Assembly (NCBI GenBank): GCA_017453485.1
Contig: JAFTEW010000056.1
Location: forward strand, 5,141 to 69,140
Origin: Alphaproteobacteria bacterium
GTDB lineage: Bacteria > Pseudomonadota > Alphaproteobacteria > CAAHEQ01 > UBA3637
Direction of reading: 5' to 3'
Length of the DNA stretch: 64,000 nt
Shown: positions 1,349-21,880 of the stretch, piece after piece
How positions within the stretch are numbered: the stretch's first letter is position 1
How the letters are laid out: the number at the start of each line of letters is the position of its first letter
Notes under the pieces: generated by a model
Told to the model about the DNA's origin: nothing
Databases searched by the model: none
What the model saw: only the letters and a program-made list of their open reading frames with translations
Translations under genes and position numbers: made by a program

Positions 1349-2476
1349 TTATTTCATCGCCGGCCGAAAAACAAGGTGATCTATCCGATTACCAAAAGCA
1401 ACCGTCATACCGTCGCGTTTAATTTCACGCACAACATGTCCAGACGGGAGAATATCATCCTGCTTAACTACCAAAACACTTCCGTCTTGTTTATTTTTAA
1501 GGCGAACCGTTAAGTCTTGCCCGATACCCCGAATACTGTCAATAGTATATAACTCTTCCATATTAGAGGGAACAGCCTTTGTCGCAGGCGCATCCGAATC
1601 GGCAACTTCTGTATCATTTTCCGAAGAAGATGTAATATGTTTCATAACTTCTTCCCGCACTTTATCCCGATTTTCTTCTTGTTCGGCAATCTTACGGGCC
1701 AAAGCCTCCTCTTCGGCTTGTTTCTTTTCGATTTCAAGCCGCAGTTTTTCCTGTTCCTGCCACCATTGAATACGGCTACGCACAACATCCTCACGTTTAG
1801 AAATTTCATCTAATCGTTGTTGACGATAGGTGGCCTTTAACTTTTCCAAATCATTTTTCAATCTTTCTTTTTCCAACTGCAATTTCAAAAAAGTATTGCC
1901 CCGTTCCAAATCGGCCATCTCTTGAAAAACTTCTGGTGTTATTCTTCCCAATAGCTGCTCATTCGGTAAATCCTTACCGGATACAGATGGTGCCATCGGC
2001 ATCGGCCCGTTAATGGATACATCGTTAATTCCCGGAATTGGTGCCAACTCTAATGACCCCAAAGACGGTCTGTTCGGAAAATCTACAATGGCTTTCCCGG
2101 AGATAGAGGGATTTTGCAGTTCTTCATCCAACCGTTTTTTATTCTCTGCCCGGACAGCTTCCGGCGTCATTGGGTCAGCGTTTCCGTTTTCACCAACTGT
2201 AATAGTCGGTTGCTGGGCTTTAACGGCACCTGTCTCTTCGGATTTTGAAACCGAACGACCGGGATTACTTTTAGGCATAATCTGAGGTACTTGAATCTCC
2301 GGAGCCGGCTCAACCGCCGCAGTTGCCGTTTCATTCACAGATACATCCTGAGCCTGTGCCGACAATCCGAATAATGCAATTGATGTCAATAAAATTGAAG
2401 ATAAAGAAATAAATTTATTTTGCATAGATTCTCCCCTCATAAGTCCATTTGTTGCCCGATCCGATCGTCGGATCAA
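1349..2476 (-). CDS. PilP/GspC-like periplasmic pilus assembly protein (signal peptide, long coiled coil, C-terminal beta domain). The true start is probably at MQNKF (about 2425).
   Basis: Signal peptide MQNKFISLSSILLTSIALFGLSAQA. A central K/E/R-rich coiled coil follows. The C-terminus (YTIDSIRGIGQDLTVRLKNKQDGSVLVVKQDDILPSGHVVREIKRDGMTVAF) fits the PilP/GspC HR-domain pattern. It sits between the secretin-side genes and the ATPase. Confidence 0.55.
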   Translation of the reverse strand: MIRRSDRATNGLMRGESMQNKFISLSSILLTSIALFGLSAQAQDVSVNETATAAVEPAPEIQVPQIMPKSNPGRSVSKSEETGAVKAQQPTITVGENGNADPMTPEAVRAENKKRLDEELQNPSISGKAIVDFPNRPSLGSLELAPIPGINDVSINGPMPMAPSVSGKDLPNEQLLGRITPEVFQEMADLERGNTFLKLQLEKERLKNDLEKLKATYRQQRLDEISKREDVVRSRIQWWQEQEKLRLEIEKKQAEEEALARKIAEQEENRDKVREEVMKHITSSSENDTEVADSDAPATKAVPSNMEELYTIDSIRGIGQDLTVRLKNKQDGSVLVVKQDDILPSGHVVREIKRDGMTVAFGNRIDHLVFRPAMK

Positions 2477-3734
2477 ATCCGATTTTTATAAATTCCAACC
2501 CGGAAAATTTATCAAAAAATACTTTCCATTCCTGTGGTGAATAAGGCGAACTGATTGAAAACGAAAAATATTTATACATTTGTTGATTTGGCGGAACCGT
2601 CCCGTCCGGATTATCCGGCGGATCTTTAATAGACTGTTCGGAAAACTGTATCGGCAAGGCCGTTGCCTGCTTGATATCCGTTAATTGCTCCCGAATTTGA
2701 TCCGCCGTTAAAGATGGTAAGGACACCACTAATGGAATATCCGTAAAACGAATATTGGCACTGGCCGACGTCCCGGACGGATCCATTTGAACTTCTACCT
2801 TGTTTAACTTATATCGCTCCAAAGCAACTTTCATCCAGGTAAGCCTTGCCCCGCGAGCATTGGTAATACGCCAATCGGTCGTTATTCCCTTAGGTGTACA
2901 GGTGACCGATCCGATCTGCCAATAGGGAATTGTAATTGAATCTAATTGATAGGCATTATTCCAGCACCGATTAATCAAGATATCTGTTTGCGGAACCCGT
3001 TCCCAAGGCTTTGGTTTTTCCGGTGCCGGTTCTTGCGGGCGCATAACCTCAGGCGTCGGCATTTGAATAATAGGGGCCTGTTCAAACACGCTGGCAATAA
3101 AACGAACAGCCAAATAGAACAAAAATGCCAAAGCGACGACGACCAAAACAGCCAAAATAACCAATATCTGTGTTTTTTTGGCAGCACTTAATTCAAATAA
3201 CCGCGTTTTACGGATATTTTCAATCAGGGTTTTTAAATCCCTTTGTTCAGCTCCTTCCACATTCCATTCTGCCGGAACGATCCGGATATCCCAATCCGGA
3301 ACAGCCATCATAGCAAAAAAGGCTTTCTTGGCATCATCTTCCGTATGGAACAGAACATCTTCTTCGGCCAAAATCAAGTCATTCCGGATAGCGACAAACC
3401 ACCATCCTTCATTGACCTTAAACACACAGCAAGCAGACGTCTTATCGGACAATGCCGTTGCCACCGAAGCCGCCAATGCAGGCTCACCGCTATGATGGCC
3501 ATACATCGTACGGCCCAAGCCATATTGCGGCGCAACAGATGTTCTTTGACAATAAAGATCAGCACCGGCTTCGGCTTCCATAGCTTCCCGAATTTCAGGA
3601 ATAGCATCATCCTGATTTTGAAGCGGAGCCCACAACAAGCCGACAGCATATTTCGTCCCGTCAATCGTGACGTTGCCACCACCGGCGGAACGATTTATTG
3701 TCTCAACATTCGTGTTATTCTGTGTATCAGCCAT
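2415..3734 (-). CDS. Bitopic inner-membrane pilus biogenesis protein (PilO-like of type IVb systems). Cytoplasmic N-domain, one TM helix, periplasmic C-domain.
   Basis: 439 aa. TM segment ILVILAVLVVVALAFLFYLAV near the middle. GGGGAGAG RBS before the ATG. Position immediately downstream of the secretin as in R64-type pil operons. The assignment rests on topology and context, not on a recognised motif. Confidence 0.45.
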   Translation of the reverse strand: MADTQNNTNVETINRSAGGGNVTIDGTKYAVGLLWAPLQNQDDAIPEIREAMEAEAGADLYCQRTSVAPQYGLGRTMYGHHSGEPALAASVATALSDKTSACCVFKVNEGWWFVAIRNDLILAEEDVLFHTEDDAKKAFFAMMAVPDWDIRIVPAEWNVEGAEQRDLKTLIENIRKTRLFELSAAKKTQILVILAVLVVVALAFLFYLAVRFIASVFEQAPIIQMPTPEVMRPQEPAPEKPKPWERVPQTDILINRCWNNAYQLDSITIPYWQIGSVTCTPKGITTDWRITNARGARLTWMKVALERYKLNKVEVQMDPSGTSASANIRFTDIPLVVSLPSLTADQIREQLTDIKQATALPIQFSEQSIKDPPDNPDGTVPPNQQMYKYFSFSISSPYSPQEWKVFFDKFSGLEFIKIGFDPTIGSGNKWTYEGRIYAK

Positions 3735-3742
3735 TCTCTCCC

Positions 3743-5389
3743 CTAGAAATCACGCATTCTGGATTCCGGCGACATAGGCGATTCTAAGACTTCCGGTGTA
3801 ATTAAAATAACCATGACATCCCGAGTTGCCTCATTATTTGCCGTTCCACCCAGCAGATTTACTTTGGCCTCTCCGATACCGGATGTGCTAATGTTTTGGG
3901 TCACCTTTTCAAAGCCTGTTAAAACCAAGGTTGAACCGGATGTCATCATGATTTCTTGTAAGAAACCGCGCATTTCCATCTTTGGCAACTGAACGGTTGT
4001 GACTTCATTATCTCCATCATCGTTCGTTGTCGTGCTACCTTCATCTTCGGAGGAAGAATCATTACTTGTCCCCTGATTACCCGTTGTAAAGCGTTCCAAC
4101 TCTAACAAGTTTGATAATGTCATTGAGAATAACAAAACCAACCGTCCGTGGTCCAAAATCCGCGGTAAAATCTCCATTGAGAACCCGTAATTCAACGTAT
4201 CCGTATCCAAATCCGTATCTGAACTGGTTGTCGAACTGCCGTAATTATTGGTCACGCTGACTTCCCGCACATAGTTCTTGGACGTTGTAATTTGAACCGG
4301 TGCCACTTTATTATTCAATGTTGTCACACTGGCACTGGTCACCAAGGATGTCTTACCCTGTGTTGACAGAGCCTGAATAATACCCTGCGTCCCTTTCCAA
4401 CGGGATGTCGGTCGCAACAGTGTCATACTGAGCGCACCGGCCAAAGCCCCGTCACCGGCAATTGCACCAGACGGTCCCGTAAATACCGTGCTGATATTGT
4501 TGGACTTAAAGACAGCATTTAAATTCAAACCGTAAGCATCACTGTTTTCCAATTGAACCTGCAAGACTTTAACAGAAATAGCCACCTGACGGGATAATTT
4601 TTCATTCCAGTTAGCAATATAACTAGCCACCCGTTGCATCACAAACGGACTGGCTGTCACGGTTGCCGTTCCTGCTGTCTTACTAAACACCACTTTGCCT
4701 TGGTCACCCAAAACTTGTTTTACACCTTCTTCAATGCTATTCCATAAAGCCAAATCAACCGATGTAGACAAAGACGAACTACCGACATCAGGAATATCCC
4801 CCCCCATGGATGCCCCTTTCAGATCAGCCGACATTTTGCTTTCCGTAGGCAAAGCATAGATGGAAAAGATTCGGGTTTCTTTGGTGAACAAAGTAATTTT
4901 TCCATTTTTATACCGCCACCAAACGCCATATCTGTTGGATAGATAATTCAACAGCCCGCTCAACTTACCGGCATAATCAACAGCCACAGCCTCTTGCGGA
5001 ACCGCATTTTCAGCTTTCAAATCATCCAATCGCACTTCAATTCCGGTCAAATCCGTAATTTCCTGAGCCAACAGAGACAATGTTGAATCCTGTGCAATAG
5101 CCAGCGTAATACTGTCATCCTGTTCTAATTCATCCGGCAAAGGATCCCCTTCCATAATTTTCATACTGGAATTGCCGAGCCAAATATCATTATGCATCCG
5201 AACGGTATCTACAGCCTCCGGTAAATCGGGGATTTCGGAGCGTTGCCGATATTCTTCGGTCCGTTCCAAAACGGTTTCAATTTTTTTATTGGTCTTATCT
5301 ACATAGTAATTGCACGCCGACAACAAAAGAGCACAGCCTAATGCCCCCGCCAACAAAGCCTTTCTCATCAAACTATCTTTCATTTTCAT
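3743..5389 (-). CDS. Secretin (lipoprotein-type, PilN/BfpB/TcpC-like outer-membrane channel)
   Basis: Lipobox LLLSAC. N0-like domain (ITLAIAQDSTLSLLAQEITDLTGIEVRL). C-terminal secretin core (LNNKVAPVQITTSKNYVREVSVT..., LPKMEMRGFLQEIMMTSGSTLVLTGFEKV..., RDVMVILITPEVL) is typical of the GspD/PilQ family. The start may be at the second or third Met (5383 or 5368). Confidence 0.85.
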   Translation of the reverse strand: MKMKDSLMRKALLAGALGCALLLSACNYYVDKTNKKIETVLERTEEYRQRSEIPDLPEAVDTVRMHNDIWLGNSSMKIMEGDPLPDELEQDDSITLAIAQDSTLSLLAQEITDLTGIEVRLDDLKAENAVPQEAVAVDYAGKLSGLLNYLSNRYGVWWRYKNGKITLFTKETRIFSIYALPTESKMSADLKGASMGGDIPDVGSSSLSTSVDLALWNSIEEGVKQVLGDQGKVVFSKTAGTATVTASPFVMQRVASYIANWNEKLSRQVAISVKVLQVQLENSDAYGLNLNAVFKSNNISTVFTGPSGAIAGDGALAGALSMTLLRPTSRWKGTQGIIQALSTQGKTSLVTSASVTTLNNKVAPVQITTSKNYVREVSVTNNYGSSTTSSDTDLDTDTLNYGFSMEILPRILDHGRLVLLFSMTLSNLLELERFTTGNQGTSNDSSSEDEGSTTTNDDGDNEVTTVQLPKMEMRGFLQEIMMTSGSTLVLTGFEKVTQNISTSGIGEAKVNLLGGTANNEATRDVMVILITPEVLESPMSPESRMRDF

Positions 5390-6257
5390 CCTCCTGCGTG
5401 CTGATGACTAGCACCCGATTACCCTGATAAAACGTTCCGATCGGTGCCGGTGTTGCCCGAGCAAACGACCGAATTAAAGCACCGGAAACTTCCGTAAATG
5501 TTCCCTGGAATATAACACCGGCTTCTAAACGATAATCCCGATCCAGTTGCCAAATAACAGTCCATCCGGATTTTTCTCCCCAATCCTTCAACAACCGACG
5601 CAAAGTATTTCCCGAATCGGCTTCCCAAGAATGAACACCTTCACCATAGGCAATTTTTTCAGCCAACGTCATTTCCCAAACAGGTTTCTCTTCTTCTGTC
5701 GCCTCTTCCGAAGAAGCCTTAACCTTCGTCGTTGTTTCCGTAATGGTTGTTTTAACTTTCTTCAAAGGAATCATCCCGGCCGGAACCGCCGCTGCCGTAT
5801 CCGCCGCTTCACCGACAACCTGAACCGATGTTTCCGTATCAGATGAGGTTTCTAAAACAGCCCCCGGCAAAGCCGTAGAGGAATACATAACCTTTTCCCC
5901 CGGCAATCCGTTTGCTTCCAAAATAGCTTTTTTTTGTTCAGCCAAAGCTTGTCTTTCCCGAACAGACATCATTCCCTGTCCGGCAGGCCGTGACACGGCA
6001 ATTGTATCATCCTGAGTTTGGATAAACTGATTAGTCAGATAATCATCTGTTTCCACACAATCATCGGCCTCACAAGCCACATCAAATGTTTCCAATCTAT
6101 CCGTATCCTGAATAACGGGAGTTGCTTGTTCATCCATAGTCCATTCATCGTTAAACGCTTCATCGCCAGAAGATAAAGAACAAGCCCCCAATCCCAGGGC
6201 GCACAGCATCGTTCCCGTCAGGATTGTTTTTTGAAATATCGTCTGTTTTCCCATCAT
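5373..6257 (-). CDS. Pilus-associated lipoprotein (possible PilL/TcpQ-like pilotin)
   Basis: Lipobox ALGLGACSLSS. Acidic, T-rich linker. Conserved-looking C-terminal block SGNTLRRLLKDWGEKSGWTVIWQLDRDYRLEAGVIFQGTFTEVSGALIRSF. It lies directly upstream of the secretin and overlaps it by a few nt. Confidence 0.45.
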   Translation of the reverse strand: MMGKQTIFQKTILTGTMLCALGLGACSLSSGDEAFNDEWTMDEQATPVIQDTDRLETFDVACEADDCVETDDYLTNQFIQTQDDTIAVSRPAGQGMMSVRERQALAEQKKAILEANGLPGEKVMYSSTALPGAVLETSSDTETSVQVVGEAADTAAAVPAGMIPLKKVKTTITETTTKVKASSEEATEEEKPVWEMTLAEKIAYGEGVHSWEADSGNTLRRLLKDWGEKSGWTVIWQLDRDYRLEAGVIFQGTFTEVSGALIRSFARATPAPIGTFYQGNRVLVISTQEDENER

Positions 6258-6311
6258 AAACTCCTTTATTCTGATACCTTACTTTATTTTATCGCATAAA
6301 ACAAGTCTTTT

Positions 6312-7373
6312 TTACCACTTTTTTACCCGTGACATATTTTTAGGTAATTTTGCTTCTTTCTTCATCCGAACTGTTTCCGTCGGTTCCGGCCGCGGCACTG
6401 CCCGGAGCAACATCGTATCAACCGGTCGATTCGTATAATTTACAACGATTTGATGGGTTGACAACCCGACCCCTTGTAAAACGCCTTTTACCAAAGCCAA
6501 TCGTTTATCTTGTAAGTCGGCTTCGGCACAACTGGACCGAATTTCAACAATCAAACGCGGATCTTGCAGAGCAGCAACAGCAAAAGCACGCACCCATTTT
6601 AAAGTTTGCCCCGAAAAAGCGCTGGCCTTCGGATAAAAGGTTATCCGCACTTCATGCGGCATTTTGAAAGGAATGCGACCACCGTCTTTTAAACCGTTAA
6701 ACATCTGATCCGCATATTCGTTGGGAACAATAATCCGTTCACGTGTTGGTAAGGCCGGTTCAGCAACCTCTCCGGCATTAACCGGTGCCAATGGAATCAA
6801 CAACCGCCCTCCGGCTGACTTAAATTCCGGTTGTTCTTCCTCGGACAAAGAAATACTCTGTTTTTTTGCCTGCTCCGTTTTTGCCTGGATTTTAGTTGAA
6901 GAATCATTTTTTACCTGATGGCCGGTCCCTATTTTAACGGGCTGACCGTTGGCAGCACCCGTTTTATCTATATCCGTCTCTTGTCCCAGAACCCGCGAAG
7001 TTGTCGTAGTTGTCGTTCGAACAATTGCCTCCTGACCGACCGAAACAGGTGTTTCAATCACAACCGGCTCATACTTAGTTTCAACAGTCGTTTGACGCTC
7101 CACGGTTGCCGTTTCCCCCGGAAGCAAGTATGTCGGCAGCAGAAAATCACCGTCCGCCGTCACCGTTGCAACAGCTTCATCCGACAGAGCCCCTTGTTCA
7201 TCCGGAAGCAATTCCCCCGATTCGGTTTTACCCGACACACCGATTGACGTATCTGCCGAAACAATTTCATTAATATCGCCATCGGCTCGGACAAAAGCCG
7301 GCAAGAGCACAGCCCAAACCGCACATGTTGTAAAAACAATGGAAGTATTTAATTTATAACGCATTTTATTCAT
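6312..7373 (-). CDS. Secreted protein with C-terminal OmpA-like peptidoglycan-binding domain
   Basis: Signal peptide. T-rich linker. C-terminal block HEVRITFYPKASAFSGQTLKWVRAFAVAALQDPRLIVEIRSSCAEADLQDKRLALVKGVLQGVGLS..IVVNY follows the OmpA_C pattern. It is the first gene of the assembly operon after the pilin-like gene. Confidence 0.5.
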   Translation of the reverse strand: MNKMRYKLNTSIVFTTCAVWAVLLPAFVRADGDINEIVSADTSIGVSGKTESGELLPDEQGALSDEAVATVTADGDFLLPTYLLPGETATVERQTTVETKYEPVVIETPVSVGQEAIVRTTTTTTSRVLGQETDIDKTGAANGQPVKIGTGHQVKNDSSTKIQAKTEQAKKQSISLSEEEQPEFKSAGGRLLIPLAPVNAGEVAEPALPTRERIIVPNEYADQMFNGLKDGGRIPFKMPHEVRITFYPKASAFSGQTLKWVRAFAVAALQDPRLIVEIRSSCAEADLQDKRLALVKGVLQGVGLSTHQIVVNYTNRPVDTMLLRAVPRPEPTETVRMKKEAKLPKNMSRVKKW

Positions 7374-7576: not shown

Positions 7577-7599
7577 CCTTACATTCGATAATAATCGAA

Positions 7600-10500
7600 T
7601 TAATCTTCCCTAGTAAATGTGACAGTCAAATTATAACTAGGTCCTCCATGGTTAGTATACATATAGTAGCAAAATGTACCACCCGGAGCCAACACTCCCG
7701 CATCTTTATTTGGGAGATAAAGTATCTGTGCACTTTTTTTATGACTACGATGAGCTAGTTCAACTTTTGTTCCACCCAAAGAACTACTTTCACATTGTCC
7801 TGATACAATTTGCCCATTTAAGCGGTATCCAGTATGCCCATAAACGGCAGATCCTGAAATTCTGATTCGATAATTTGAGTTCGTATTATTCGTTGTATGA
7901 CAAAAAGCTTTGCTCCAATCATTGTGAGACGTCCCACTTGCATAGCAGGTTTGTAATGTAGCAGGACCTCGACAAATTCCATTAATAAATTCATTTGGAG
8001 ATTCGCAACATTTTTTAGTGTTACCGGCTGTATAGATACGATTACTGGCACAACACTTATTATCTGCCCAACCTTGACCACTGTTACAACAATGTCCGCT
8101 GACATTAATTTTACCGCTGGCACAGCAGAGTCCGCCACCGACATTAACATTATTGCCCGTACAGCAAACCTTTGTCCCATCCGATGCTTGACTCAAATCC
8201 TTTGCACAGCATTTATTGGTCGATCCATCTTTATAAACACGAGATGTCAGACAACAAGAAGAACTTGTATTAGAAGCCGTTCCGATAACGGTTTGATTAT
8301 CGCCGCAACAACTCCAATAATCCGTAGTTCCGGTCGCCCCCTCTTTCCATTTTTTCCGGAACTTAGTTGCCGTGGAGTCATCTCCTTTCAACAATTTACC
8401 ATCAGCACAACATCCTGCAAACGTTTGTGTCTTGTTGTTTTGTTTTCTTTCATTAAACAACTTGGTTGCTCCGCTGGAGCAGCATCCGACCGTATTGCTC
8501 AGTGTCCAATTACTTGTATTACATGTTTGACACTCACCGACTTTACTTGTATCAACGACAACCGCGCCATTCGGATAGTTTTGTCCGTTACATTTACCGC
8601 AGGCACCAACAGCACCGGTGTGTCCCTGCCAATTCCATGTCGTCGTATTGCAACTTTGACAAGTTGGTGTTGTCTGATCTCCGCGCACAGGACTCCCGTT
8701 CACACACTTACCGCATTGACCGATCGTTGTTCCATCCGTTTTATTTGTTGTTGATGTTGTCTTGACATTCGTACACAGGTTCGTTGTTGTTGCCACCGTT
8801 GAACACGTATTGTTTGTCTCGCTGGTCGTTGTCTTATCGGCAGAACATGTGCTGGCCGGTCCGCTTTCTCCGGCGGCTAAACACTTTGTTTCCGTCTTAC
8901 TCTTACAACAATTACCATCCAGGTATTTATAAGTCACACTCTTGTTCGTCGCCGTTCCATCACAAACACCCTTACAGTCAAATTTTCCACTGGCACAACA
9001 CTTTGTGCCATTGGCATATACCGTCCCGGAGCAACATTTCTTCGTCCCATTCTCGGTATAAACCTTCGTCGTATCACAGCAAGTTGTTCCAACCACTTGA
9101 CCGTTCGCACAGCACTTGCCGCCAACATAACTCTGGCCGCTCGCACAACAATGTCCGTTTGACAAAACATTATCACAACATTTCGTCACACCACCTTCGG
9201 TATATGTCCGATTTGCAGGGCAACACCCTTCTTCATCTTTGCAGGAGGCATCAGCACTACAACACGTCCGGGTTGTTCCATCACAATTCGTCACGGTTTT
9301 ATTTGTTGCCGTTCCGTTACAGACACCGGCACAGTCTTTCTTGGCTGAACCACCGCAAACACCCGCACAGTCCTTAACCTGTCCCGGACAACACCCTTCT
9401 GCCGTCTTCGCTATGCCACAACCGCATCCGTCATCCTTGGCCGTTCCGTTACACACACCGGCGCAATCTTTCGTTGCTGTCCCGCCGCAAACACCCGCAC
9501 AGTCCTTAACCTGTCCCGGACAACACCCTTCTGCCGTCTTCGCTATGCCACAACCGCATCCCTCATCCTTGGCCGTTCCGTTACACACACCGGCGCAGTC
9601 TTTCGTTGCTGTCCCGCCGCAAACACCCGCACAGTCCTTAACCTGTCCCGGGCAGCACCCTTCCGCTGTCTTCGCTATGCCACAACCGCATCCGTCATCC
9701 GTCTTATTACTTCCGCAAACGCCGTCACATCCCTTCTGACCCTTATTGACAATCTTATATCCCGTCGCTGCACTACACGTAATACACTCCTCATCCGTCC
9801 AATCTCCCATCAATACATTCCCGTTCGTGCATCGTCCGCATTCCTCTATCGTTGAACCGCTCTCATATGTCTTCCCGTTATATTCGCACTTCTTCGGCGG
9901 ACATAATCCAACCCCTCCCTTACCGTCACAGCACCGATCCTGACTCGGATCCGCTCCACTGACTACCTTTACTCCTTTCTCCTTCGGCTTACATGTCCCG
10001 TTCGCCTGTCTCTCCTCACATACATCACAATGGCATTTCCCATAATCACGAACACAGACACCCGTCTCATTATCACAACACAACGGATGACACTCCGAAT
10101 CATAAGAACATAACGCACCTACACTGTCATGGAACACAAACGATAGCACATTATGATACTCTCCATCCAACGCCGAACTGATCATCCCTCCTTCACGTAT
10201 CACATCTCCGTCCGGAATACATTCCACATCATACTTCCTCTCCCCATAGTTCCAACTATACAACTCCCCATTAATCGCCGTATAGGTCGGATCCGGAAAC
10301 TCCGTCTTCTTCACTATCTCGCACACACGATACGGGATATCATACACTTCCAAAGCTTGAATATATTCTTCCCCGTTCAAACCGCTGTTTGATACAACCG
10401 CATTCCCATACGGACTCGGCCGATCATTCGGATAGTCATTAAAGGCCTCTACCTTAAACCGGCCATATATCTTATCCTCCGCACTGTCCGGATGAAACTC

Positions 10501-10725
10501 CTTTAAATCCAAGTCCTGCTCTAACACCCGTTGCTGACCGATAATTACAGAACGCATCCGAACACCATTCACAACCTCGTTCGCCATGATCCGATCCAAC
10601 GAATAACGATATCCCCATAACGCCGTCATCGTTATAATCCCCATAATCGCCAGAACGCCCAATATCTCCGTCATCGTCCGACCGGCTTGCGAGAACAATA
10701 TACTCTTCAAATTTGTATTCGCCAT
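7600..10725 (-). CDS. Giant (~1040 aa) cysteine-rich surface protein with type IV prepilin-like N-terminus (minor-pilin/adhesin candidate). Contains CC-doublet repeats and three 41-aa tandem repeats.
   Basis: Start reassigned to the ATG at 10725, which has an AGGAG RBS 7 nt upstream. The track ORF starts at 10833. The N-terminus MANTNLKSILFSQAG|RTMTEILGVLAIMGIITMTAL has G at -1, E at +5 and a hydrophobic helix, resembling TcpA/BfpA-type prepilins. The remainder has over 100 Cys in CCxxG, CxGxC and CAGVCGGTATKDCAGVCNGTAKDxGCGCGIAKTAEGCCPGQVK repeats. Confidence 0.6.
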   Translation of the reverse strand: MANTNLKSILFSQAGRTMTEILGVLAIMGIITMTALWGYRYSLDRIMANEVVNGVRMRSVIIGQQRVLEQDLDLKEFHPDSAEDKIYGRFKVEAFNDYPNDRPSPYGNAVVSNSGLNGEEYIQALEVYDIPYRVCEIVKKTEFPDPTYTAINGELYSWNYGERKYDVECIPDGDVIREGGMISSALDGEYHNVLSFVFHDSVGALCSYDSECHPLCCDNETGVCVRDYGKCHCDVCEERQANGTCKPKEKGVKVVSGADPSQDRCCDGKGGVGLCPPKKCEYNGKTYESGSTIEECGRCTNGNVLMGDWTDEECITCSAATGYKIVNKGQKGCDGVCGSNKTDDGCGCGIAKTAEGCCPGQVKDCAGVCGGTATKDCAGVCNGTAKDEGCGCGIAKTAEGCCPGQVKDCAGVCGGTATKDCAGVCNGTAKDDGCGCGIAKTAEGCCPGQVKDCAGVCGGSAKKDCAGVCNGTATNKTVTNCDGTTRTCCSADASCKDEEGCCPANRTYTEGGVTKCCDNVLSNGHCCASGQSYVGGKCCANGQVVGTTCCDTTKVYTENGTKKCCSGTVYANGTKCCASGKFDCKGVCDGTATNKSVTYKYLDGNCCKSKTETKCLAAGESGPASTCSADKTTTSETNNTCSTVATTTNLCTNVKTTSTTNKTDGTTIGQCGKCVNGSPVRGDQTTPTCQSCNTTTWNWQGHTGAVGACGKCNGQNYPNGAVVVDTSKVGECQTCNTSNWTLSNTVGCCSSGATKLFNERKQNNKTQTFAGCCADGKLLKGDDSTATKFRKKWKEGATGTTDYWSCCGDNQTVIGTASNTSSSCCLTSRVYKDGSTNKCCAKDLSQASDGTKVCCTGNNVNVGGGLCCASGKINVSGHCCNSGQGWADNKCCASNRIYTAGNTKKCCESPNEFINGICRGPATLQTCYASGTSHNDWSKAFCHTTNNTNSNYRIRISGSAVYGHTGYRLNGQIVSGQCESSSLGGTKVELAHRSHKKSAQILYLPNKDAGVLAPGGTFCYYMYTNHGGPSYNLTVTFTRED
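9290..9715 (-). repeat. 123-bp tandem direct repeat (about 3.4 copies, near-identical), in-frame within the pilin-like gene
   Basis: Read directly from the DNA. Shadow ORF 9239..9739 also shows three identical 41-aa units, PAQSF(L/V)A(E/V)PPQTPAQSLTCPGQHPSAVFAMPQPHPSSLAVPLHT. Confidence 0.85.
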
Positions 10726-10980: not shown

Positions 10981-11056
10981 GACCCTATCGTCTAGAGGCC
11001 TAGGACATCGCCCTTTCACGGCGGTAACGGCGGTTCGAATCCGCCTAGGGTCGCCA
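10981..11056 (+). tRNA. tRNA-Glu (anticodon TTC)
   Basis: Cloverleaf folds. Acceptor GACCCTA/TAGGGTC. Anticodon loop CTTTCAC. Near-identical to E. coli tRNA-Glu through TCGTCTAGAGGCC.AGGAC.CCGCCCTTTCACGGCGGTAAC. Ends in CCA. Confidence 0.9.
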
Positions 11057-11535: not shown

Positions 11536-12525
11536 TTAAGTAATTTCCGTGACAGCCCGAATGTTGCCGTCCCGATTGATTTGAACAACCTTAACCTTTT
11601 CCCGCATCTCTTTCAATGTCTTTTCCCGATCCATCCCCGGAGACGAGTGCAAAATTCGGGACAAAAAAGCCTGATACGCCTCAGTCGCCGAATCAGCGTG
11701 AATGGTTGCAAAACAGTTATCATGCCCCGTATTCATCAATTCCCAAAATGCCGCCGCATTGCTGGTAGAAATTTCCCCACACAAAATCGCATCCGGTGTA
11801 AACCGAACGGCTAAGTCAATCACCTTTTTATAATCAAATGCATTTGTCTGCTCGGTTCGGGACAAAACAACATGCACCCTGTTTTTATGGGGCACTTTTA
11901 ATTCACGAACGTCTTCCACCGTCACCACGCGCTTGTGTAAATCCAGCAACTGAATCATATTATTTAAAAATGTTGTCTTACCGGTTGCCGTTCCGCCGCT
12001 AACCAAAATATGATTGCCGCGCTTAATATACATAACCAACCGATCATAGGGATCATCCGGATCCTCAACACCCTTTAATTTATTGATCCGTTGCAGACGC
12101 TCTCCGGATTCTAAACCGAACTCCTTTAACTTAATCGGCTGATCCGGCCGCCAAACACGAATATCCATGGCCACACCACCCGTCAAATCATTATTGTCAT
12201 ACTGAACGTTATTACCGGCAATCCCCGTAAAACGATGGCCGCCGGGTAACTGAGTAAAAACAACCGGATTGCCGTTTACCGGATCAAAAGCCATATTATA
12301 GGAATTGGCAATAATATGTAATAAATTAACCAAGTACTCGCGTGTCAATTTTGGATCTTCATAGTAATGCCACGGGTGCGCATGCCGCCCCCTGAGCCGC
12401 AACCAAACACCACCGGGATTGTTGATGGCCATATCTTCCACATTATCTTGCGAATACCAATAGGCCAGGGGTCTTAATACGGACTCCAACACCCGATACA
12501 TATTTTCAACAGGTAAATCCGCCAT
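11536..12525 (-). CDS. virB11: VirB11-family type IV secretion ATPase
   Basis: Walker A VSGGTATGKTT. C-terminal block ILCGEISTSNAAAFWELMNTGHDNCFATIHADSA, as in VirB11/TrbB. Confidence 0.85.
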   Translation of the reverse strand: MADLPVENMYRVLESVLRPLAYWYSQDNVEDMAINNPGGVWLRLRGRHAHPWHYYEDPKLTREYLVNLLHIIANSYNMAFDPVNGNPVVFTQLPGGHRFTGIAGNNVQYDNNDLTGGVAMDIRVWRPDQPIKLKEFGLESGERLQRINKLKGVEDPDDPYDRLVMYIKRGNHILVSGGTATGKTTFLNNMIQLLDLHKRVVTVEDVRELKVPHKNRVHVVLSRTEQTNAFDYKKVIDLAVRFTPDAILCGEISTSNAAAFWELMNTGHDNCFATIHADSATEAYQAFLSRILHSSPGMDREKTLKEMREKVKVVQINRDGNIRAVTEIT

Positions 12526-12545
12526 TGATACCTCCCGCTTTACCG

Positions 12546-15500
12546 CTAAAACAGTTTTTTATCGGTCTGTTGCTGCGTCCTGGGGAAAATCGGATTAACA
12601 ACCTGTCGATTAGTCCCCGTATTCGCCGTCGGCACAACCGCGACAGAAGGTGTAGAACCGGTCGCCGGGGCCGTTTCTGCGGCCGCCTGATTATCGGTAT
12701 CGGTCTCCCCGTTATAGATCGCTGCCCCACCGCCCATACCGGCCCGGTCATTATAGAGGACATCCCGATTGGTATAGATGGTTTCATAATCCGGATTATA
12801 GTATCCGACCCCATCATCCACAACAACAGACCCGCCACCGATATCGGTCGCAATACCACGCTCCGATGCTAATTCCGACATTTCACCGCTGCGAGGTTCA
12901 ATCCAATTCCCCTTGGAAGCCGGTCGGGCTTTCTTGGTATCTGCCCCATAGGCCGCTAAATAATCCTGCTCATCCTCAATTTCAGAACGGAGCCATAAAT
13001 CCGAGTTGGAAAATACCGTCAACCGTGTTCCGGCCGGCACAAAAACAACCTCGTCTATATTCATTGATTCATTTAATAATTGTTGGAAAATCTGACTCAT
13101 CGAATCAATGAAATTACTTCTGGCATCATTCGCTGCCTGTGCCCGAGAACTCATCACCTGATCACCGTTATCTTTATTCGTGATATCATCATTTGTCGCC
13201 GTCACAAACGCAATAGCCGATGTTAATGTTGATTGCAGAACCGGTCGCCCGTATTTCTTCAATAACTGCTCATCCAAATAGGCTGCTACACCGCCACGCC
13301 CCTGAGCATCACCAGAAGTTGCACTAAACGTAAAGGCCGAACCGTCCGGACGAATTAAGCGCGTCCAAGAAATTTCCATTTTATTGACATGTGAGCCACC
13401 GGCACCACCACCGCCTCCACCGGCACTACCGATCAGACGACTACCGGCAGGAATAATGATGCGCCGTCCCTGTTCGGCATAAATATGACGTTCAACAATA
13501 GCCGTCACAGGAACACTCGCATGACGAGAATCAATAGAATGTGCTAACACGGCCGGAATAGCTTTATCCTTTAAAATCATCCGTGACATATCAACCGGAT
13601 AACTGGACACGATTTTGGGTTCCCCCCAATCCAAATCCTGTTTTTTACGGGCACGAGCCAAAGTCCGCACATCCGGCAACATCCGCTCATAGGAACGAAT
13701 TTTGCTCTTCATCGCGGCCCGCCGTGTTGCCAACAGGCTATCCATAGCATCTTTATGTTCTTGGGGCACTTCAATCGGTTTTTTAATATCCGGACGACCC
13801 GTCGGACCACCAGTACCACTTAAAGCCCGATCATCCAGCGAATAGGGACGACCATCCTCACCCATATACCCGATGATATTACCGTCTTTATCAATTAAGG
13901 ATCCCTGTGGGGTCACATTAAACATCTCACCGCCCAAGAAGATACGGCGATCCCCAGACATTGCCCCCGGACCATCACCTAACATAAGAGCTGGTGCAAT
14001 CTTTTCCAAATCAATACCGAATAACTCAACATCCGAGATAACGTTATCATTCAAATCACGCACAATACCGTCATCCCCCAGTTTTCCTTTTGTTGTACCA
14101 TCAAAACCGACAATATCGCCGTTATCTAAAATCAATCCGATGAAATTACCGTCCGGATCACGAACAACCCGAATATCACTGACTTCATTTCCATTCGGAT
14201 CTACCAACTTATCATCATCTGTCAAGGTGGCAATTTTCCGACGTGTTTTGGGATCAATAATATCTCCGTTCGGGAGAACTTGAAATTGTTCATTCCCTTT
14301 CGGGTCTTTAAACATTCCGTTTCGCCCGAAACTGCCCCGGATATTACCCCGACTGTCAAACATCAATTCTTCATCCGGTGTCACAACCCGACAAATAATT
14401 TCGCCTTCTTGGTTAATAATGCTACCCTTGCCATCACCGATAACTTTACCAACAATTTTTCCGGCACCATCTACCACAATACCATTATGCTTAATTCGAC
14501 CGCAAGCCCCCCCGTTCGGGTCAATGGCTAAGCCCCGTTCCACAACGTGTCCGACAGCATCACCACTACCATTAACGACCGTCCCGTCATTTCGGGCACA
14601 ACCCATGACGATACCATTTACGTCAACGACCGTTGAATCCGGAAGTGTTCGTCCCAAATAATCACCTGAAATGGATGCAACCAACCCGTTTTGTGCTGCC
14701 CGACCAATTCGATTTTCGGCACCATCCACAGCCCACTTATCCGGCGTAACCCGACCAACGGCATTTCCTTGACCGTTAATAACTTGACCGTTGAATGAGA
14801 CTTGCCCTAATACTTTGCATTCATTAACAACCAATTGTTCCGGGACAAGACCACCTAAAATCCGATACTTATGCGTCCCTTTAACAGCACCGTTTACGGC
14901 AATTTGGCCAACTTCTTCACCGGCATAAGAAACAACCTTACCTTCACCATCCAACATACCCAAAACCTGACCGTCATGACCGGTGGCCGGATTAAAGGAC
15001 AAGACCATTCCGTCAATCGGTAAATCCTTCCCCAGGACCGATCCGTCATCCAATTCCCGATAAACTTTTTTATCTGCGGCATCTACAATATCACCCGTCA
15101 CGGTTGTCCGCCCCATAACTTGATTGCGATAACTGAATGGCAATCCTTGCTTGATGACATGGCCGACATACGGCATTGTTGAATACATTTGACGATCCGA
15201 CAATCCAACGGCACTTCCATCCGACAAGATACGTCCCATCAAAAGCCCTTCTTTTCCGGAAATCGTTCCATCCAAGGCAATCACACCGATATCATATCCG
15301 TCATCATTGACAACTTGCCCAACAGGTAAAGCACCTCCGGCCCAAATTGTATCCGGTGTCAAAGCCGATCCATACGGCATATATTCAGCTAATTTATGAC
15401 CGTCTTTACCTAAAATTTCAACAGTTCCCGAACTTCGGCCAATCACAACACCGTTGCGATCAATAAATGTTGCCGGTGATAATATGCCACCAATCAATTG

Positions 15501-18500
15501 ACCTTGCGAATCATACACAGCACCGCTACCTGTCCCAACGGCCGTTCCAGACTCTTGACCATCCGTTAAAATCTGCCCTGTCGGCAACGGAATCCCCATC
15601 AAGCCCAATTTTGTCCCGATCGGCAATCCAACCGGCGATAACCCGGCGACAACCTTTTTAGTCAAATCAACAACCAAACCGTTTGCCGTTAAATTGCCCA
15701 GGGGCTTATTATTATTGACAACCATGACGATACCGTCTGCACCGGCCATGCCTGATAATCGACCGTTAACATTATCTTTAACAGCTAATGATTTTTGCAT
15801 CAATCGGCCGACGATTCGCCCATCTTGAACAGCGTAGGTTTGATTGGTCACAGAAGCCACCTTATCACCACGACCGTTCACAACCTGCCCTTTTCCATCT
15901 ACAAGTCCCATAAATCCGGTCTTATCCGCCATGACCAATGTGCCAAGCGGGATATAGGCCCCCAGGACACTGCCGTCTGTATGAACAACCTGACCATCCA
16001 GCGTCACATGTCCGATAACATTTTGACCATCCTCCACAGCCCCATCAAACCGAGTCCAACCGATAAAGCCCCCATCGGCATTAACAGCCACACCGGGTTG
16101 CAACAATTGACCAACAATACCATCCTTGTTGTTGAAAACATAAGTATAACCGTTCATTAATCCGATATTCTGCCCGTTAGCAGTCAAAACCTGGCCATTC
16201 GTCGATACGGCCGTCAGATAACTTCCGTTTTCGGATACAACGATTCCCCGCGGAACCAGCGTTCCCAACACTTGATTATCAGCATTTAAAGCAACACCCG
16301 TCACCGAAACTGTCCCGACGGCATTTCCGGATTTGTCGTTGATACCGCCCTTAAAGTTAGCCCAACCGATTAACTGTCCAGTCGAATCAACATACGGTCC
16401 TATCCTCAACAACCGCCCGGAAATATTCTCCCGTTCACTATAAATTGTGCCAAACGGAGAAGCCACCCCGATTTGTCGACCACGGGCATCGTTAATTTTA
16501 CCCTGATAAGTCAATGCTCCCAACAATCCGTCAGCTCCAATCGGTAATGAGATATCCGGAAAAATACCGCCCAAAACCCGACCATCATTTGAAATCGCCA
16601 GTCCGTTTCCTAAAACATGTCCGATAACTGTCTGAGCCGCTGAAATGACTTCACCTTTACCGTTAACCGTCCCAACTTCACGACCGGTCACAGAAAAAAC
16701 TTTCCCCTGCGGAATGCGAACCCCGACCGTTTGCCCGGCCCGATTGACCACAGTGCCATCAGACTTAATTACACCTAAGGATTCGCCATCCTGATTCTGT
16801 AAGATACCATCAACGGTCATTGTTGCTAAATAGCCACCCTTCGGATCCATGAAAGCCGTCTTATCCGGGACCAACAACCCAATAACCGTGTTCTTTTCGG
16901 TATTCAAAACAGAATAATCCGGCAAAACATACCCGAACCGTTCACCGCTTGGTGTCAAGGCCATCCCTGTTTTTCTGGAATACCGCCCCAGGATAACACC
17001 GTCATGACCGAAAATAACACCATCCGGCGGCACAACAGCAATGATTTCATCTTTATCATTAACGACCCAGTTATTCGGTAGCAAACGACCGACTTTTTGG
17101 CCATCCGGCCCATAAACGTCCGTTCCAACAACCTTTAATCCGGTATCATCACCGTTTTCGTTTAGCACAGCCCCATCACCCGGTTCTGCCCCCAACAAAA
17201 TTCCGATAGGCGTTTTTCCATCCTGACCGGTGACTGTCCCATCACTGTTAACACACCCGATCACATTTCCGTCATTATCAATAACTTTACCATCCAAGCG
17301 TGTCCGACCGATAACTTTTCCGGTTGGACTCACAACCAACCCCATCGGAGCCACGAAACCGATGACTTCTTCTTGCTTATCAATAATTTGCTTTTCCGGA
17401 TTCATGCAACCGATAATCAACCCGTTTTCATCCATGACGTAACCTTCCGGCGTAATCAACCCTAAGAAACGACATCCGTCAGCAATAGCTGCTCCACGTG
17501 GCACAACCACACCGATGATACGGTGGTTAACATTAACAACATGACTGTCCGGACGCACCTGCCCGACCACTTCCACAGCTGCATTCATCACAACACCATT
17601 CGGATAAACGGACCCGATTCCCTGACATCCACGCCCCATGACATGACCGCGCGGCATAACGGCACCTAAAATTTTGGTCCCAGCAGATACGGTTCCGTCC
17701 GGATTAACACACCCGATAACAGACCCTTTACCATCAACCACTTTACCTTCCGAATTCACAAAACCGATGACATTACCTTTTTCGTTAATGACAAGCCCCA
17801 TCCGAATGGCCGTTCCCACATCAACACCATTCGCATCAACAACGGCACCATTCAACAGCGTATGACCAATTACCTGCGAGAAACCATCCTTAACCTGTCC
17901 GTTCGGCATAATCCGACCTAAGGCTTTACAAGCAGCCCCGACAGCGATCCCCCGAGGAATAACTCCCCCGATCAATTCTCCATCCGGATCAACAGCCAAC
18001 CCGTTCGGTTGGATGGAACCGATTGTCTGATTACTTTCATTTACAATAGAACCATTCGGCAAAATTCCACCGATAACTTGCCCTAACCAGTTGATAACCA
18101 ATCCCTGCGGTTCCAAATACCCGATCGGCTCACCGGCTAAATTAACAACCGTTCCGTCAACCAAGGGTCTGCCGATAACGGTCTTTGATCCGTCAACAAC
18201 CGTTCCTTCTTTGGTGACCACGCCCAAAACCCGTCCTTGTTCATTCAAAACAGAAACAACAGGAATAGCGCTTCCCAGCACCTTTAAGGAAGAATCCACA
18301 ATCGTGTCATCACCCACCAACCGACCGACAGCTTTCCCATCCGCATCCGTCACATCACCGGTTTTAGAGATTGTCCCCATCATTTTGTTGTTGATATCAA
18401 TCGGAATTCTTTCCGGCTCAACGATACCGACAAAGTGATCATCTTTATCAACCAACAAATTGCCTTTTACCTTGTATGTCTCACCACCGATTTCGACCTC

Positions 18501-19172: not shown

Positions 19173-19205
19173 TGCACCTAACCTCTTTTAATCAAATATT
19201 ATTCT

Positions 19206-21074
19206 TTATTGAATCCGAACAACCGAGCACGAGAATCCCCGACGACCGAGTTTTCGACACAAAGTATCACCCGCTTTAATACTTTTCACCGGACCGACAC
19301 GAAGGCGGAACAATTCCCGAACATCTCCATCAGCCGTTGCATCAATGGAATAATACGGTTCATATCCTTTCAACAAATCTTCGTTTTTCCCGTAAATATT
19401 ATCCCATTCGGATTCCAAAGCAGCAATATTCGGATTTGCCCCCAACTCAACGGCTATTGATTCCGTGGTCGTTGTTGTCACTCGACGATTCCGAACGCCG
19501 GCAGAAACTGGTTTTACCGATGCATCCTGATATCCCGCCGACATCGGAGAAACCGCCGTATTACCCGACAAAGTAATATCGCCCATCACATTATCGATTC
19601 CGGCACGAGCAGCCTGTGACTGCAATACAGCCGGCGGAATTGTCTGCATCGGCGCCATTTGATCGCCCGCCACAGCCTGATAAGCATTACCGTTTGTCGC
19701 TCCGTGTTGCGGCTGCTGATCACAGTATTCATATTCACCATCCGGGCAACGACCGGCATCACAACACCCACGCCCGTTTCCGCGACCATCAGCATCCGAA
19801 CCGTAGCCGGCTCCGCCGTTAATCGGTTCACCATCCATATTCAGAGCCGTTTGCTTACGTGCCAACAGAGCATCAATGGACATAGCACCATCACCGGCAC
19901 CGTAGTTATCCGGTAGATGTGGCGCGTTCCACCGTTCCGGACGGGCACTATCCGCACTATAATCCGTCCATTCCAAGCCGGTTGCCGGATCACGACGCAG
20001 TTTCAGGCAAATCAATTTCTTCCCATTTCTCAGGACCATATCACCGATTCCTTCCACAACGATTAAACGACTATTCGGCCCCCGCGTTCTGAACCCGACA
20101 GGCACTTCGGAATCTTCAACAATTAAGTTGACAATCGGCCGTTGTGTCATCGTTAAGGCCTTCGGACCCAAGTCAATATAGGTAAAAATATTATCCCGCC
20201 ATACATTATCCGGAGCGATATCAATATCACTCGGATTCGGCAGATACATATCAATATCAAAGCGGAAAGATTCCGGATCAACCGGAATGGATGCCAACCA
20301 ATCTTTCGGTCCCGTTGAAGCCGTATTCAGCCCAATTTGCGGATTTTGAGCGCCACCCGGCACCAAATTACTTTGTCCGGCCCAACCCGGTGCAGAAGAA
20401 AAGCCACTGGCCATTGCCGAAGACATCGTCACCGAAGCACCGTTATAACTGCCGAGCGATCCGCCGGCACTAACCGGTGTATAACGTTGTCCGACCAACA
20501 CATCCACAACGGATTGTGTGATTTTATCGGTATTATAGGTTTCACTCCGCAAATAGAACACATACCGATTACCAGAGCGACCAAACACAATCATATTGCA
20601 ATCAACACCGATATAGGAGGGATCGGCATACAGAAGGAGAGAATTCGGCGCCGCAATTTCACCACCAAAGGATTCCGGAGAACCGATATGGACTTTTTCA
20701 ATCAATTCCCATGTCGGCAGGTTAATCAAGGTCATCATCCCTTCACGCAGACGAATCGGCAACACAACATCCGGAGACCAGTTATAGCGTGAATACCCTG
20801 GTTTCAATTGTCCTTCTCCCATATGAGACAGCGGATCATTCCATGCTTTTTGTTGCATGCCCAAGGAGTGAATATACCCCAAATTCATTTGGTCAAACTC
20901 ACCGGTTGTCTGCGCAATCGCGTCTTCCAACTGAGCCGCTTCCGTATCGGTCGGCAACATTTGTTGAGCCATTGCCCCCGTTGCCATCAAAACAGATACG
21001 GCAACAGCACCTAACCAATTCATTTTGTGCATATTTTTTTTCGTCATTATTGATTTCTCCTTCATATTTGACAT
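19206..21074 (-). CDS. virB9: VirB9 with C-terminal extension ending in a SPOR-like peptidoglycan-binding domain
   Basis: Signal peptide. VirB9 N- and C-domains (e.g. ESFRFDIDMYLPNP...RPIVNLIVEDSEVPVGFRTRGPNSRLIVVEG). The terminal ELFRLRVGPVKSIKAGDTLCRKLGRRGFSCSVVRIQ aligns with the FtsN/DedD SPOR consensus (..RVxIGPVK....A..L..KL...G.....V). Confidence 0.75.
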   Translation of the reverse strand: MSNMKEKSIMTKKNMHKMNWLGAVAVSVLMATGAMAQQMLPTDTEAAQLEDAIAQTTGEFDQMNLGYIHSLGMQQKAWNDPLSHMGEGQLKPGYSRYNWSPDVVLPIRLREGMMTLINLPTWELIEKVHIGSPESFGGEIAAPNSLLLYADPSYIGVDCNMIVFGRSGNRYVFYLRSETYNTDKITQSVVDVLVGQRYTPVSAGGSLGSYNGASVTMSSAMASGFSSAPGWAGQSNLVPGGAQNPQIGLNTASTGPKDWLASIPVDPESFRFDIDMYLPNPSDIDIAPDNVWRDNIFTYIDLGPKALTMTQRPIVNLIVEDSEVPVGFRTRGPNSRLIVVEGIGDMVLRNGKKLICLKLRRDPATGLEWTDYSADSARPERWNAPHLPDNYGAGDGAMSIDALLARKQTALNMDGEPINGGAGYGSDADGRGNGRGCCDAGRCPDGEYEYCDQQPQHGATNGNAYQAVAGDQMAPMQTIPPAVLQSQAARAGIDNVMGDITLSGNTAVSPMSAGYQDASVKPVSAGVRNRRVTTTTTESIAVELGANPNIAALESEWDNIYGKNEDLLKGYEPYYSIDATADGDVRELFRLRVGPVKSIKAGDTLCRKLGRRGFSCSVVRIQ

Positions 21075-21146
21075 GCCTTGATTGTTTTATCCTAAACAAA
21101 AATAGAAACAAAGTCCACAAAAAAATGAAATTTTTATGTTTTTTGC

Positions 21147-21860: not shown

Positions 21861-21880
21861 ATGCCCAAACCCCTTTTATC

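Follow-up and report, generated by a model that had tools for sequence, protein, structure and literature searches.

We analysed a 64,000-nucleotide stretch from the genome assembly of an uncultured alphaproteobacterium of the gut (contig JAFTEW010000056.1 of GCA_017453485.1, positions 5,141 to 69,140 of the forward strand), hereafter called the window, which carries a gene for a large pilin-like protein with a cysteine-rich tandem repeat array in its C-terminal part. The gene occupies 7600..10725 on the minus strand, where it starts with the ATG at 10725, has the sequence AGGAG 8 nt upstream, ends with the stop codon at 7600-7602 and encodes a modular protein of 1041 amino acids (aa). A longer open reading frame (ORF) reaches to 10833 and would yield a 1077-aa product, the extra upstream part of which is probably not used. 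The 1041-aa product (P0001) is identical to NCBI entry MBQ7413621.1, which is recorded as a 'hypothetical protein' from an 'Alphaproteobacteria bacterium' metagenome-assembled genome (MAG). Upstream of the pilin gene lies a block of VirB-type type IV secretion system (T4SS) genes (11536..22781), and downstream of it lies a block of type IVb pilus assembly genes (1349..7373) recognized with Pfam and NCBIfam models, both of them also on the minus strand.

Tandem Repeats Finder (TRF) located the array at 9308-9700 with a period of 132 nt, 3.0 copies, 94% matches, no indels and a score of 695, and a gapless repeat finder returned three 132-nt copies at 9308-9439, 9440-9571 and 9572-9703. When these results are set into the frame of the gene by unit alignment, the array covers 9298..9693 of the minus strand as three 132-nt units that we call W1 (9693-9562), W2 (9561-9430) and W3 (9429-9298). 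A repeat scan found the array to be the sole long, high-identity repeat of the 64-kb window, which places it far beyond what would be expected by chance. A preliminary description of this DNA had correctly placed a tandem array inside 9290-9715 within a pilin-like gene, but its unit of 123 bp or 41 codons has to be replaced by one of 132 nt or 44 codons, a length that agrees with the 44-residue peptide which the description itself had written out. Its copy number of about 3.4, the result of dividing a 426-nt span by 123 (3.46), likewise gives way to 3.0.

Each unit encodes 44 aa with 8 cysteines, arranged as GCGCGIAKTAEGCCPGQVK followed by DCAGVCGGxAxK and then by DCAGVCNGTAxxx. W1 and W2 differ at 6 of their 132 nt (95.5% identity), W2 and W3 differ at 14 (89% identity) and W1 and W3 differ at 17 (87% identity), while the longest exact run common to any of the units is a stretch of 77 nt in W2 and W3 (9353-9429 = 9485-9561). 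Near-identity of the copies at the nucleotide level, as had been asserted earlier, is therefore true for W1 with W2 and for the 77-nt run of W2 and W3, but not for the rest of the array. At the protein level W1 and W2 agree at 43 of 44 residues and the other two pairs at 39 of 44 each. The codon differences between W1 and W2 comprise five synonymous changes and one nonsynonymous change, the latter a conservative E/D exchange. That the unit differences are mostly synonymous indicates that the 44-aa module is under purifying selection, and the dominance of synonymous differences in the minus frame also favours the minus-strand reading. ORFs on the plus strand over the array (e.g. 9239-9739) were considered and rejected as by-products of the repeat composition.

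Outside the array the repeats of this gene are degenerate (66-85% identity), as had been noted before. They include a degenerate 13-aa partial copy, GCDGVCGSNKTDD, before the array, as well as an isolated 12/13-aa copy of the motif, DCKGVCDGTATNK, that belongs to repeat family D2 and lies at 8941..8979 (minus strand), 107 codons past the array end. The earlier expectation that copy-number change would keep the reading frame was also borne out, as 132 is divisible by three and all of the changes that we observed are in frame. TRF detected no short-unit tract in positions 1-20000 of the window, which comprise the gene and its upstream region. With an in-frame unit of 132 nt and no short-unit tract, the array thus falls outside the class of simple-sequence contingency loci that give rise to phase variation. 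A literature search for the motif CAGVCGG found no papers. Note that the 12-aa repeat DCAGVCxGxAxx, often in dozens of copies, is also present in unrelated large surface proteins (P0003, P0004, P0006, P0014 and others) whose hosts are marine Marinimicrobia, Myxococcota and a eukaryote, and that several of these proteins carry a PF27846 tag.

The relationship among the three units changes along their length. W2 and W3 exhibit no differences over the first 57 nt (codons 1-19), and all 14 differences between them are found within the last 57 of the 132 nt, a distribution with a chance probability of about 8e-6. In the two DCAGVC sub-repeats W2 shows 0 of 36 and 2 of 39 differences relative to W1. 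W2 is thus a chimera, with a 5' side that equals W3, a 3' side that equals W1 except for 2 nt, and a duplication or crossover junction zone between them at 9487..9519 (minus strand). If the units are written as segments a, b and c, then the array has the order a1-b1-c1, a3-b1-c1, a3-b3-c3, which is explained by the fact that one 132-nt duplication of a1-b1-c1, a3-b3-c3 gives exactly that pattern. The two W2-private nucleotides, which are present in neither W1 nor W3, both match unit L1 of the ortholog described below. Two substitutions have been gathered since the duplication. The duplication itself could have occurred by unequal homologous exchange after misalignment of the units, or by slippage over the homology between them. 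Regarding the slipped-strand mispairing that had been proposed alongside recombination, an array of three 132-nt copies that are 5-13% diverged is a poor substrate for this process, and homologous unequal exchange fits at least as well.

The sole close comparator for the pilin-like protein is an 816-aa protein (P0002) encoded at locus L001 on an ENA metagenome contig, which exhibits 88-90% DNA identity to the window over a shared 10 kb. This ortholog has two units, L1 and L2, of the same 132-nt period versus three units in the window. Two units are also present in P0107, a cluster mate that is identical to P0002 at 814 of 816 residues and is probably not independent of it. Between the two lineages the units differ at 16-25 of 132 positions, with W1 and W2 each 16 differences away from L1, and L1 and L2 differ from each other at 24 of 132 positions. 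Since W1 and W2 differ from each other at only 6 positions, the duplication, or alternatively a homogenising conversion, must be younger than the split of the lineages. The earlier suggestion of a recent expansion is thus sustained by the make-up of W2, as a chimera of a W3-type 5' part and a W1-type 3' part with two private differences, and by the 6 sites that separate W1 and W2 relative to the 16 that separate each of them from L1. The presence of two units in the closest relative moreover supports a two-unit ancestor. When genomes and metagenomes were scanned with residues 1-480, no close relative was obtained, nor did the genome, metagenome or protein collections yield a same-species genome. 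Exact-sequence look-ups matched no contig to either the 1077-aa or the 1041-aa product.

Comparison with L001 also revealed changes that go beyond the number of units. Specifically, blastn and mafft alignments show that an in-frame segment of 480 nt (160 codons; 8971..9450, minus strand) is lacking in L001. This indel comprises one 132-nt unit together with a 348-nt CC-rich segment, and both of its ends lie in copies of the motif DCxGVCxGTATN[KR], with the isolated copy at 8941-8979 forming the distal boundary. The tail of unit L2 in L001 resembles the isolated copy at 8941-8979 more than any copy in the array, and the sequence SVTYKYLDGNCC follows the isolated copy in the window and L2 in L001. 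A second in-frame replacement is located at 8489..8740 (minus strand), where 252 nt in the window correspond to 66 nt in L001. When analysing nucleotide identity to L001 along the locus, we obtained values of 89.3% in the 5' part of the pilin gene, 87.6% in the shared repeat units, 95.2% at 8741-8970 and 95.5% at 7600-8480, the 3' third of the gene (minus strand). In the genes downstream of it, the values are 81.5% for the gene of a 353-aa protein, 85.3% for the TcpQ-domain gene, 84.4% for PilN and 89.0% for PilO.

Divergence from L001 therefore falls abruptly, from about 11% to about 5%, at the DCxGVCxGTATN motif. In the last 297 codons we obtained a dS of 0.035, a dN of 0.058 and a dN/dS of 1.66. 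The ratio of synonymous to nonsynonymous changes in these codons is about 7:38, as opposed to 75:35 in codons 1-344 (Fisher p = 1.6e-9); the excess of dN over dS in the 3' tract alone is not significant (Fisher p = 0.36), only the contrast with the 5' part is. From these values we infer that the distal part of the gene may have been exchanged recently between lineages and may thereafter have changed mainly at the protein level, with one recombination boundary probably located at or near the Cys-motif repeats. Because the same 12-aa motif bounds both the 348-nt indel and the drop in divergence, the larger process at this locus is one in which modules of the C-terminal part are exchanged, inserted or deleted, and goes beyond the counting of units on which the preliminary description had focused. 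Within the window we found neither a donor for the 3' tract nor a further copy of any portion of the gene. A diversity-generating retroelement was also considered for the nonsynonymous-rich 3' tract and rejected, given that there is no template copy in the window and that the spectrum of changes is not A-biased; no reverse transcriptase was found among the ORFs of the window that were scanned, a set that did not include every ORF.

The N-terminal part of the protein exhibits features of a type IV pilin. Its 15-aa leader peptide, MANTNLKSILFSQAG, which was read from the sequence and ends in Gly (10681..10725, minus strand), is hydrophilic and is followed by RTMTEILGVLAIMGIITMTAL, a hydrophobic tract with Glu at position +5. 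Class III signal peptides consist of a hydrophilic leader with Gly or Ala as its last residue and a subsequent stretch of about 21 residues that is mostly hydrophobic and has Glu at +5 (PMC8179133), and the N-terminus of the pilin-like protein has all of these elements. Residues G15, E20, C135 and C169 are invariant in 37 family members. The pilin module spans mature residues 16-205 (10111..10680, minus strand) and has two cysteines, C135 and C169, that could form a disulfide in the head. AlphaFold2 run on the 37-sequence alignment gave a pLDDT of 87.1 and a pTM of 0.79; a model from nine sequences had a pLDDT of 55 and was not used. In the predicted structure a helix extends to residue 67 and is followed by a beta head of six strands plus short helices, which corresponds to the pilin 'lollipop' of an alpha-1 helix of about 50 residues with a beta-sheet head.

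Type IVb pilins have leaders of 13-30 residues, a +1 residue that varies among M, L, W and S (PMC9045228), and an enlarged head that contains a disulfide. The 15-aa leader is within this range, and the +1 residue here, an Arg, is outside of the listed set. Searches of Pfam and NCBIfam with the whole 1041-aa protein gave no family match, even at E = 10, and one sub-threshold match to Pfam N_methyl was obtained with a relative. The class III signal motif, the type IVb pilus operon setting and the confident helix-plus-sheet model together bear out the earlier view of the gene as pilin-like. A pilin motif scan found no other pilin motif in the window.

The pilin module is followed by a Cys-rich region of aa 206-918 (7972..10110, minus strand), in which cysteine counts per segment amount to 98 Cys, and by a C-terminal low-Cys domain of aa 919-1041 (7603..7971, minus strand) that was defined by composition and has 4 Cys. 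Judging from this composition, the Cys-rich region would be a disulfide-rich stalk and the C-terminal domain a putative distal head. The Cys-rich region has no Pfam or PDB relative, and sequence searches of the PDB with the repeat region and with the C-terminal domain returned nothing usable.

A profile built from the pilin module matched 844 cluster representatives at E <= 1e-10, a number that rises to 5067 (among 1.84 billion) when the threshold is set at E <= 1e-3, as well as 519 loci in GTDB species genomes. The best 80 of these 519 loci are nearly all from 'Alphaproteobacteria bacterium' MAGs from the guts of humans, ruminants and other animals, and there are often many family copies per genome. 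Members of this family, for which there is no Pfam or NCBIfam model, have a constant N-terminus that keeps the motif G|RSMVEMLGVLAI and hypervariable Cys-rich C-termini, with lengths from about 100 to >1600 residues and Cys contents of 4-12%. The members of about 100 aa, such as the five short ones at locus L064, are likely major pilins. About 11 of 66 long family genes contain in-frame tandem repeats of 90-477 nt with 77-91% identity. In addition, three kinds of module recur in sister proteins with pilin modules that are 95-99% identical, namely a 30-aa module (2-6 copies), the DCxGVC module (0-11 copies) and a third one (0-3 copies). We considered the sister proteins P0007/8/9/15/26 as copy-number alleles, a possibility that was rejected because their contigs show different chromosomal loci. 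Three of the four dispersed paralogs are directly followed by a 68-aa Cys-rich ORF (L083 9351-9557, L084 8981-9187, L085 8769-8975). The two of these ORFs that were translated, those of L083 and L085, are nearly identical and have a signal-peptide-like N-terminus and a Cys-rich C-terminus; no equivalent of this ORF is present in the window.

The extent to which family members are linked to T4SS and pilus genes is variable. In L003, a distant gut alphaproteobacterial MAG, a 514-aa family member is located directly after virB10-virB11 (8724-11518), as is the case in the window, so that linkage of the pilin gene to the T4SS may be no weaker than its linkage to the pilus operon. In L052 and L072 a family member and a PilN/PilO operon are a few kb apart, on opposite strands. 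As a side observation, the 514-aa member of L003 has a low-complexity (TE)n/TVTETE linker and a different Cys-rich C-terminus, and the VirB10 of L003 (873-8702) is 2609 aa long with several near-identical long tandem repeats near its C-terminal third.

The genes downstream of the pilin gene, all on the minus strand, code for the 353-aa secreted protein (6312-7373), a PilL-like protein with a TcpQ domain (5373-6257; PF10671 TcpQ), a type IVb secretin of the PilN family (3743-5389; TIGR02520, 296.4 bits versus a cutoff of 287.65), PilO (2415-3734; PF06864) and, by a weak match, PilP (1349-2476; TIGR03021). The genes upstream, which were assigned with Pfam and NCBIfam and are also on the minus strand, code for VirB11 (11536-12525), a 2208-aa VirB10 with beta-flower repeats (12546-19172), VirB9 (19206-21074) and two VirB8 proteins (21147-21860 and 22146-22781). 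The beta-flower repeats (PF21785) of VirB10 form nine stretches ahead of the TrbI/VirB10 domain. The two VirB8 paralogs stand side by side and are followed by seven ORFs of 211-530 aa (22787-29476) that have no Pfam match and are presumably further divergent T4SS parts. A tRNA-Glu(UUC) gene was detected by ARAGORN at 10981..11056 on the plus strand, between virB11 and the pilin gene, in an upstream region with 92.5% identity to L001. The pilin gene and the gene of the 353-aa protein are together bracketed by an inverted repeat of 22 nt (6302-6323 / 10916-10937), which is AT-rich, has 86% complementarity and may reflect chance or a shared regulatory sequence.

From about 29.5 kb onwards the window is ordinary chromosome with folD, surA, lpt genes, an xerC/D-like gene, tuf and mutS. 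In this part a single 1077-aa ORF (31592-34825, minus strand) matches the LptF/LptG permease with residues 6-345 and LptD with residues 401-1012, and represents either an uncommon fusion or a pair of genes that share a frame with no stop between them.

Taken together, we consider it probable, with some reservation, that the array represents a recent expansion to three 44-aa, 8-Cys modules in the extracellular C-terminal part of a giant type IVb-like pilin that is encoded between a VirB-type T4SS and a PilL/N/O/P operon. According to this model, one 132-nt tandem duplication in a two-unit ancestor would have generated the chimeric unit W2. The short Cys-rich motifs would act as in-frame recombination joints, at which the presumed stalk could gain or lose modules and the distal part of the gene could be exchanged. 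Such module turnover would alter the length and composition of a stalk by which the C-terminal head may be presented at the tip of the pilus. If PilV of the IncI-type conjugative thin pili is taken as a guide, the protein might then serve as a contact or adhesin subunit for target cells or surfaces. The data on tempo point to change between lineages over evolutionary time rather than to high-frequency switching. A more far-reaching extension, which strikes us as rather speculative and unlikely, is that the Cys-rich DCxGVCxG motifs are the joints of a cassette-like system in which a large set of dispersed full-length pilin genes with near-identical 5' pilin modules swap and re-count C-terminal modules and thereby re-target the tip of a T4SS-associated type IVb pilus in gut Alphaproteobacteria. 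If true, such a system would be functionally analogous to PilV switching but would do without a shufflon, and the 3' tract would be under diversifying selection.

A number of observations weigh against the proposed recent expansion in a pilus-tip protein. Regarding the pilin itself, the top seven Foldseek matches of the model in the PDB are all type IVb pilins, namely TcpA of the TCP filament, CofA of the ETEC pilus and PilS of S. Typhi, but their E values of 0.27-1.3 are not significant and the fold match is therefore supportive only. A motif scan together with Pfam and NCBIfam searches of most, but not all, ORFs revealed no prepilin peptidase, major pilin, platform protein or pilus ATPase in the window. 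Location at the tip, disulfide bonding, the stalk role and the adhesin function are all inferred properties. The sister proteins, being encoded at different loci among housekeeping genes, are paralogs and support modularity only. As to copy number, the difference of three versus two units comes from one independent close comparator, L001, which at about 89% nucleotide identity is a different lineage; no strain-level or read-level copy-number polymorphism was seen. Both sequences are short-read metagenome assemblies, and since short reads collapse identical extra copies, three units are the minimum number. In principle a mixture of strains could have produced the chimera as an artefact, and ongoing gene conversion among three old units gives the same mosaic with no recent change in copy number.

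These last points lead to the explanations that compete with a recent duplication. One is that the three-unit structure is a short-read assembly artefact, caused by mis-traversal of the repeat or a mix of two strains, and that the true copy number is different. The source is indeed a MAG contig, the 132-nt unit is near the read length and short reads cannot count identical units. However, all three units are distinguishable from each other with a longest exact repeat of only 77 nt, and the independently assembled ortholog also has tandem 132-nt units. Furthermore, the two W2 nucleotides that are absent from the corresponding positions of W1 and W3 match L1, which argues against W2 as an assembly re-use of W1 and W3 since it could not have been built from paths through these two units. 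We regard an artefact as very unlikely on these grounds. An old and fixed array is harder to dismiss and yet seems improbable to us. According to this explanation the three units form a structural stalk, their patchy identity comes from gene conversion and the ortholog has lost a unit. This is in agreement with the purifying selection on the units and with segment similarities across the two lineages that break simple orthology, in that segment a of W1 is nearest to L2 while segment c of W1 and W2 is nearest to L1. It is opposed by the observation that a single duplication explains all of the W1/W2/W3 pattern and by the lack of homogenisation between L1 and L2, which retain their 24 differences in 132 nt, and it would still need inter-unit recombination and a copy-number change in one lineage.

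The remaining competitor is a high-frequency contingency locus, in which slippage or RecA-mediated exchange often varies the number of units and so creates size or antigenic variants of an adhesin, as the preliminary description had envisaged. In its favour, the unit length preserves the reading frame, two of the units are near-identical, the copy number differs from that of the ortholog, and the mostly nonsynonymous change in the distal part of the gene fits selection on an exposed protein. Frequent variation is nevertheless difficult to reconcile with an array that has only three copies and a longest exact shared run of 77 nt, and with units that at 4.5-13% divergence are far less uniform than those of classical size-variable proteins. 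Also, both of the near-identical ortholog assemblies carry two units, and the two substitutions since the duplication indicate that the event is not very recent. We therefore give this explanation little credence, and the reading that we retain is that of a single duplication in a two-unit ancestor after the split from the L001 lineage.

Regarding known systems, the closest functional analogue of the pilin-like protein is PilV of the IncI-type thin pili, a T4SS-linked minor pilin of the type IVb class in which the N-terminus is constant while the C-terminus varies and selects the target (PMC9045228, PMC5297154). PilV proteins of the IncI1/IncI2 thin pili (R64, R721, TP114) and PilV2 of PAPI-1 are like the system in the window in having PilL/N/O/P-type genes beside a conjugation-type T4SS, and PilV is likewise a large pilin-like protein with a constant N-terminal and a variable C-terminal part. 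However, PilV is varied by a shufflon, in which short 3' cassettes are exchanged through sfx inverted repeats and the Rci recombinase, whereas variation here comes from tandem duplication, indel and exchange at direct repeats, and the protein here is about twice as long with 10% Cys. A shufflon was looked for and rejected, given that there are no inverted repeats in or near the pilin gene and no adjacent recombinase; the only tyrosine recombinase in the window is the XerC/D-like one, which is encoded about 24 kb away among housekeeping genes. A tblastn search of 72,556 plasmids with the pilin module (residues 1-203) gave no match. The protein is thus separated from PilV by homology, by sfx repeats and by the shufflase.

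Modular pilins with bulky C-terminal modules have an architecture that is compatible only with the filament tip (PMC8179133, PMC5207764, PMC6048534). TcpB of V. cholerae, CofB of ETEC and PilB of S. sanguinis resemble the protein described here in having C-terminal modules grafted onto a pilin module, and also in having a gene that heads a type IVb pilus operon, before TcpQ-like and secretin genes. In contrast to these proteins, with which we found no sequence or domain relationship, the protein here has about 830 residues of Cys-rich mini-modules with tandem repeats in place of a vWA- or lectin-type globular domain, and its tip site is a proposed one.

A screen for Periscope proteins used repeats of >50 residues, and the stalks of these proteins are variable in length by proposed intragenic recombination (PMC8201768). 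Periscope proteins and other length-variable adhesins (Sgo_0707, SasG/Aap, Rib/alpha C, Esp, CdrA) are similar to the present case in that they are surface proteins with in-frame, high-identity repeats, the number of which differs between related genomes (here between two lineages), and that a stalk, in the present case a presumed one, projects a distal domain. The 44-aa unit is shorter than the >50 residues of the Periscope screen, while its protein identity of 89-98% is as high as the definition of these proteins requires. Other differences from Periscope-type adhesins are that there are only three copies of uneven identity and that the carrier is a type IV pilin, not a cell-wall-anchored or secreted adhesin. 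In the Neisseria pilE/pilS system the 5' part of the pilin is conserved and the 3' part varies, recombination is guided by short conserved blocks, and the genome contains many related copies. The family described here is like it in the conserved 5' and variable 3' parts of the pilin and in its many related copies, but here each copy is a complete gene that has its own leader and a dispersed location, and not a silent cassette.

Considered by itself the repeat is an ordinary in-frame repeat expansion, and of greater interest are its carrier and the family to which the carrier belongs. Repeat stalks of variable length are well known from adhesins that are secreted or anchored to the cell wall, and modular pilins have been described as well, while a combination of the two was not found described in the literature. 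What we describe is a pilin with a presumed repeat-built, Cys-rich stalk, the module number of which has changed since the split from its closest known relative, and at least two genomes place a member of this family directly after virB10-virB11. If these proteins are indeed contact subunits of a conjugation- or secretion-associated pilus, then their modular turnover would bear on the choice of partners and surfaces by uncultured gut bacteria.

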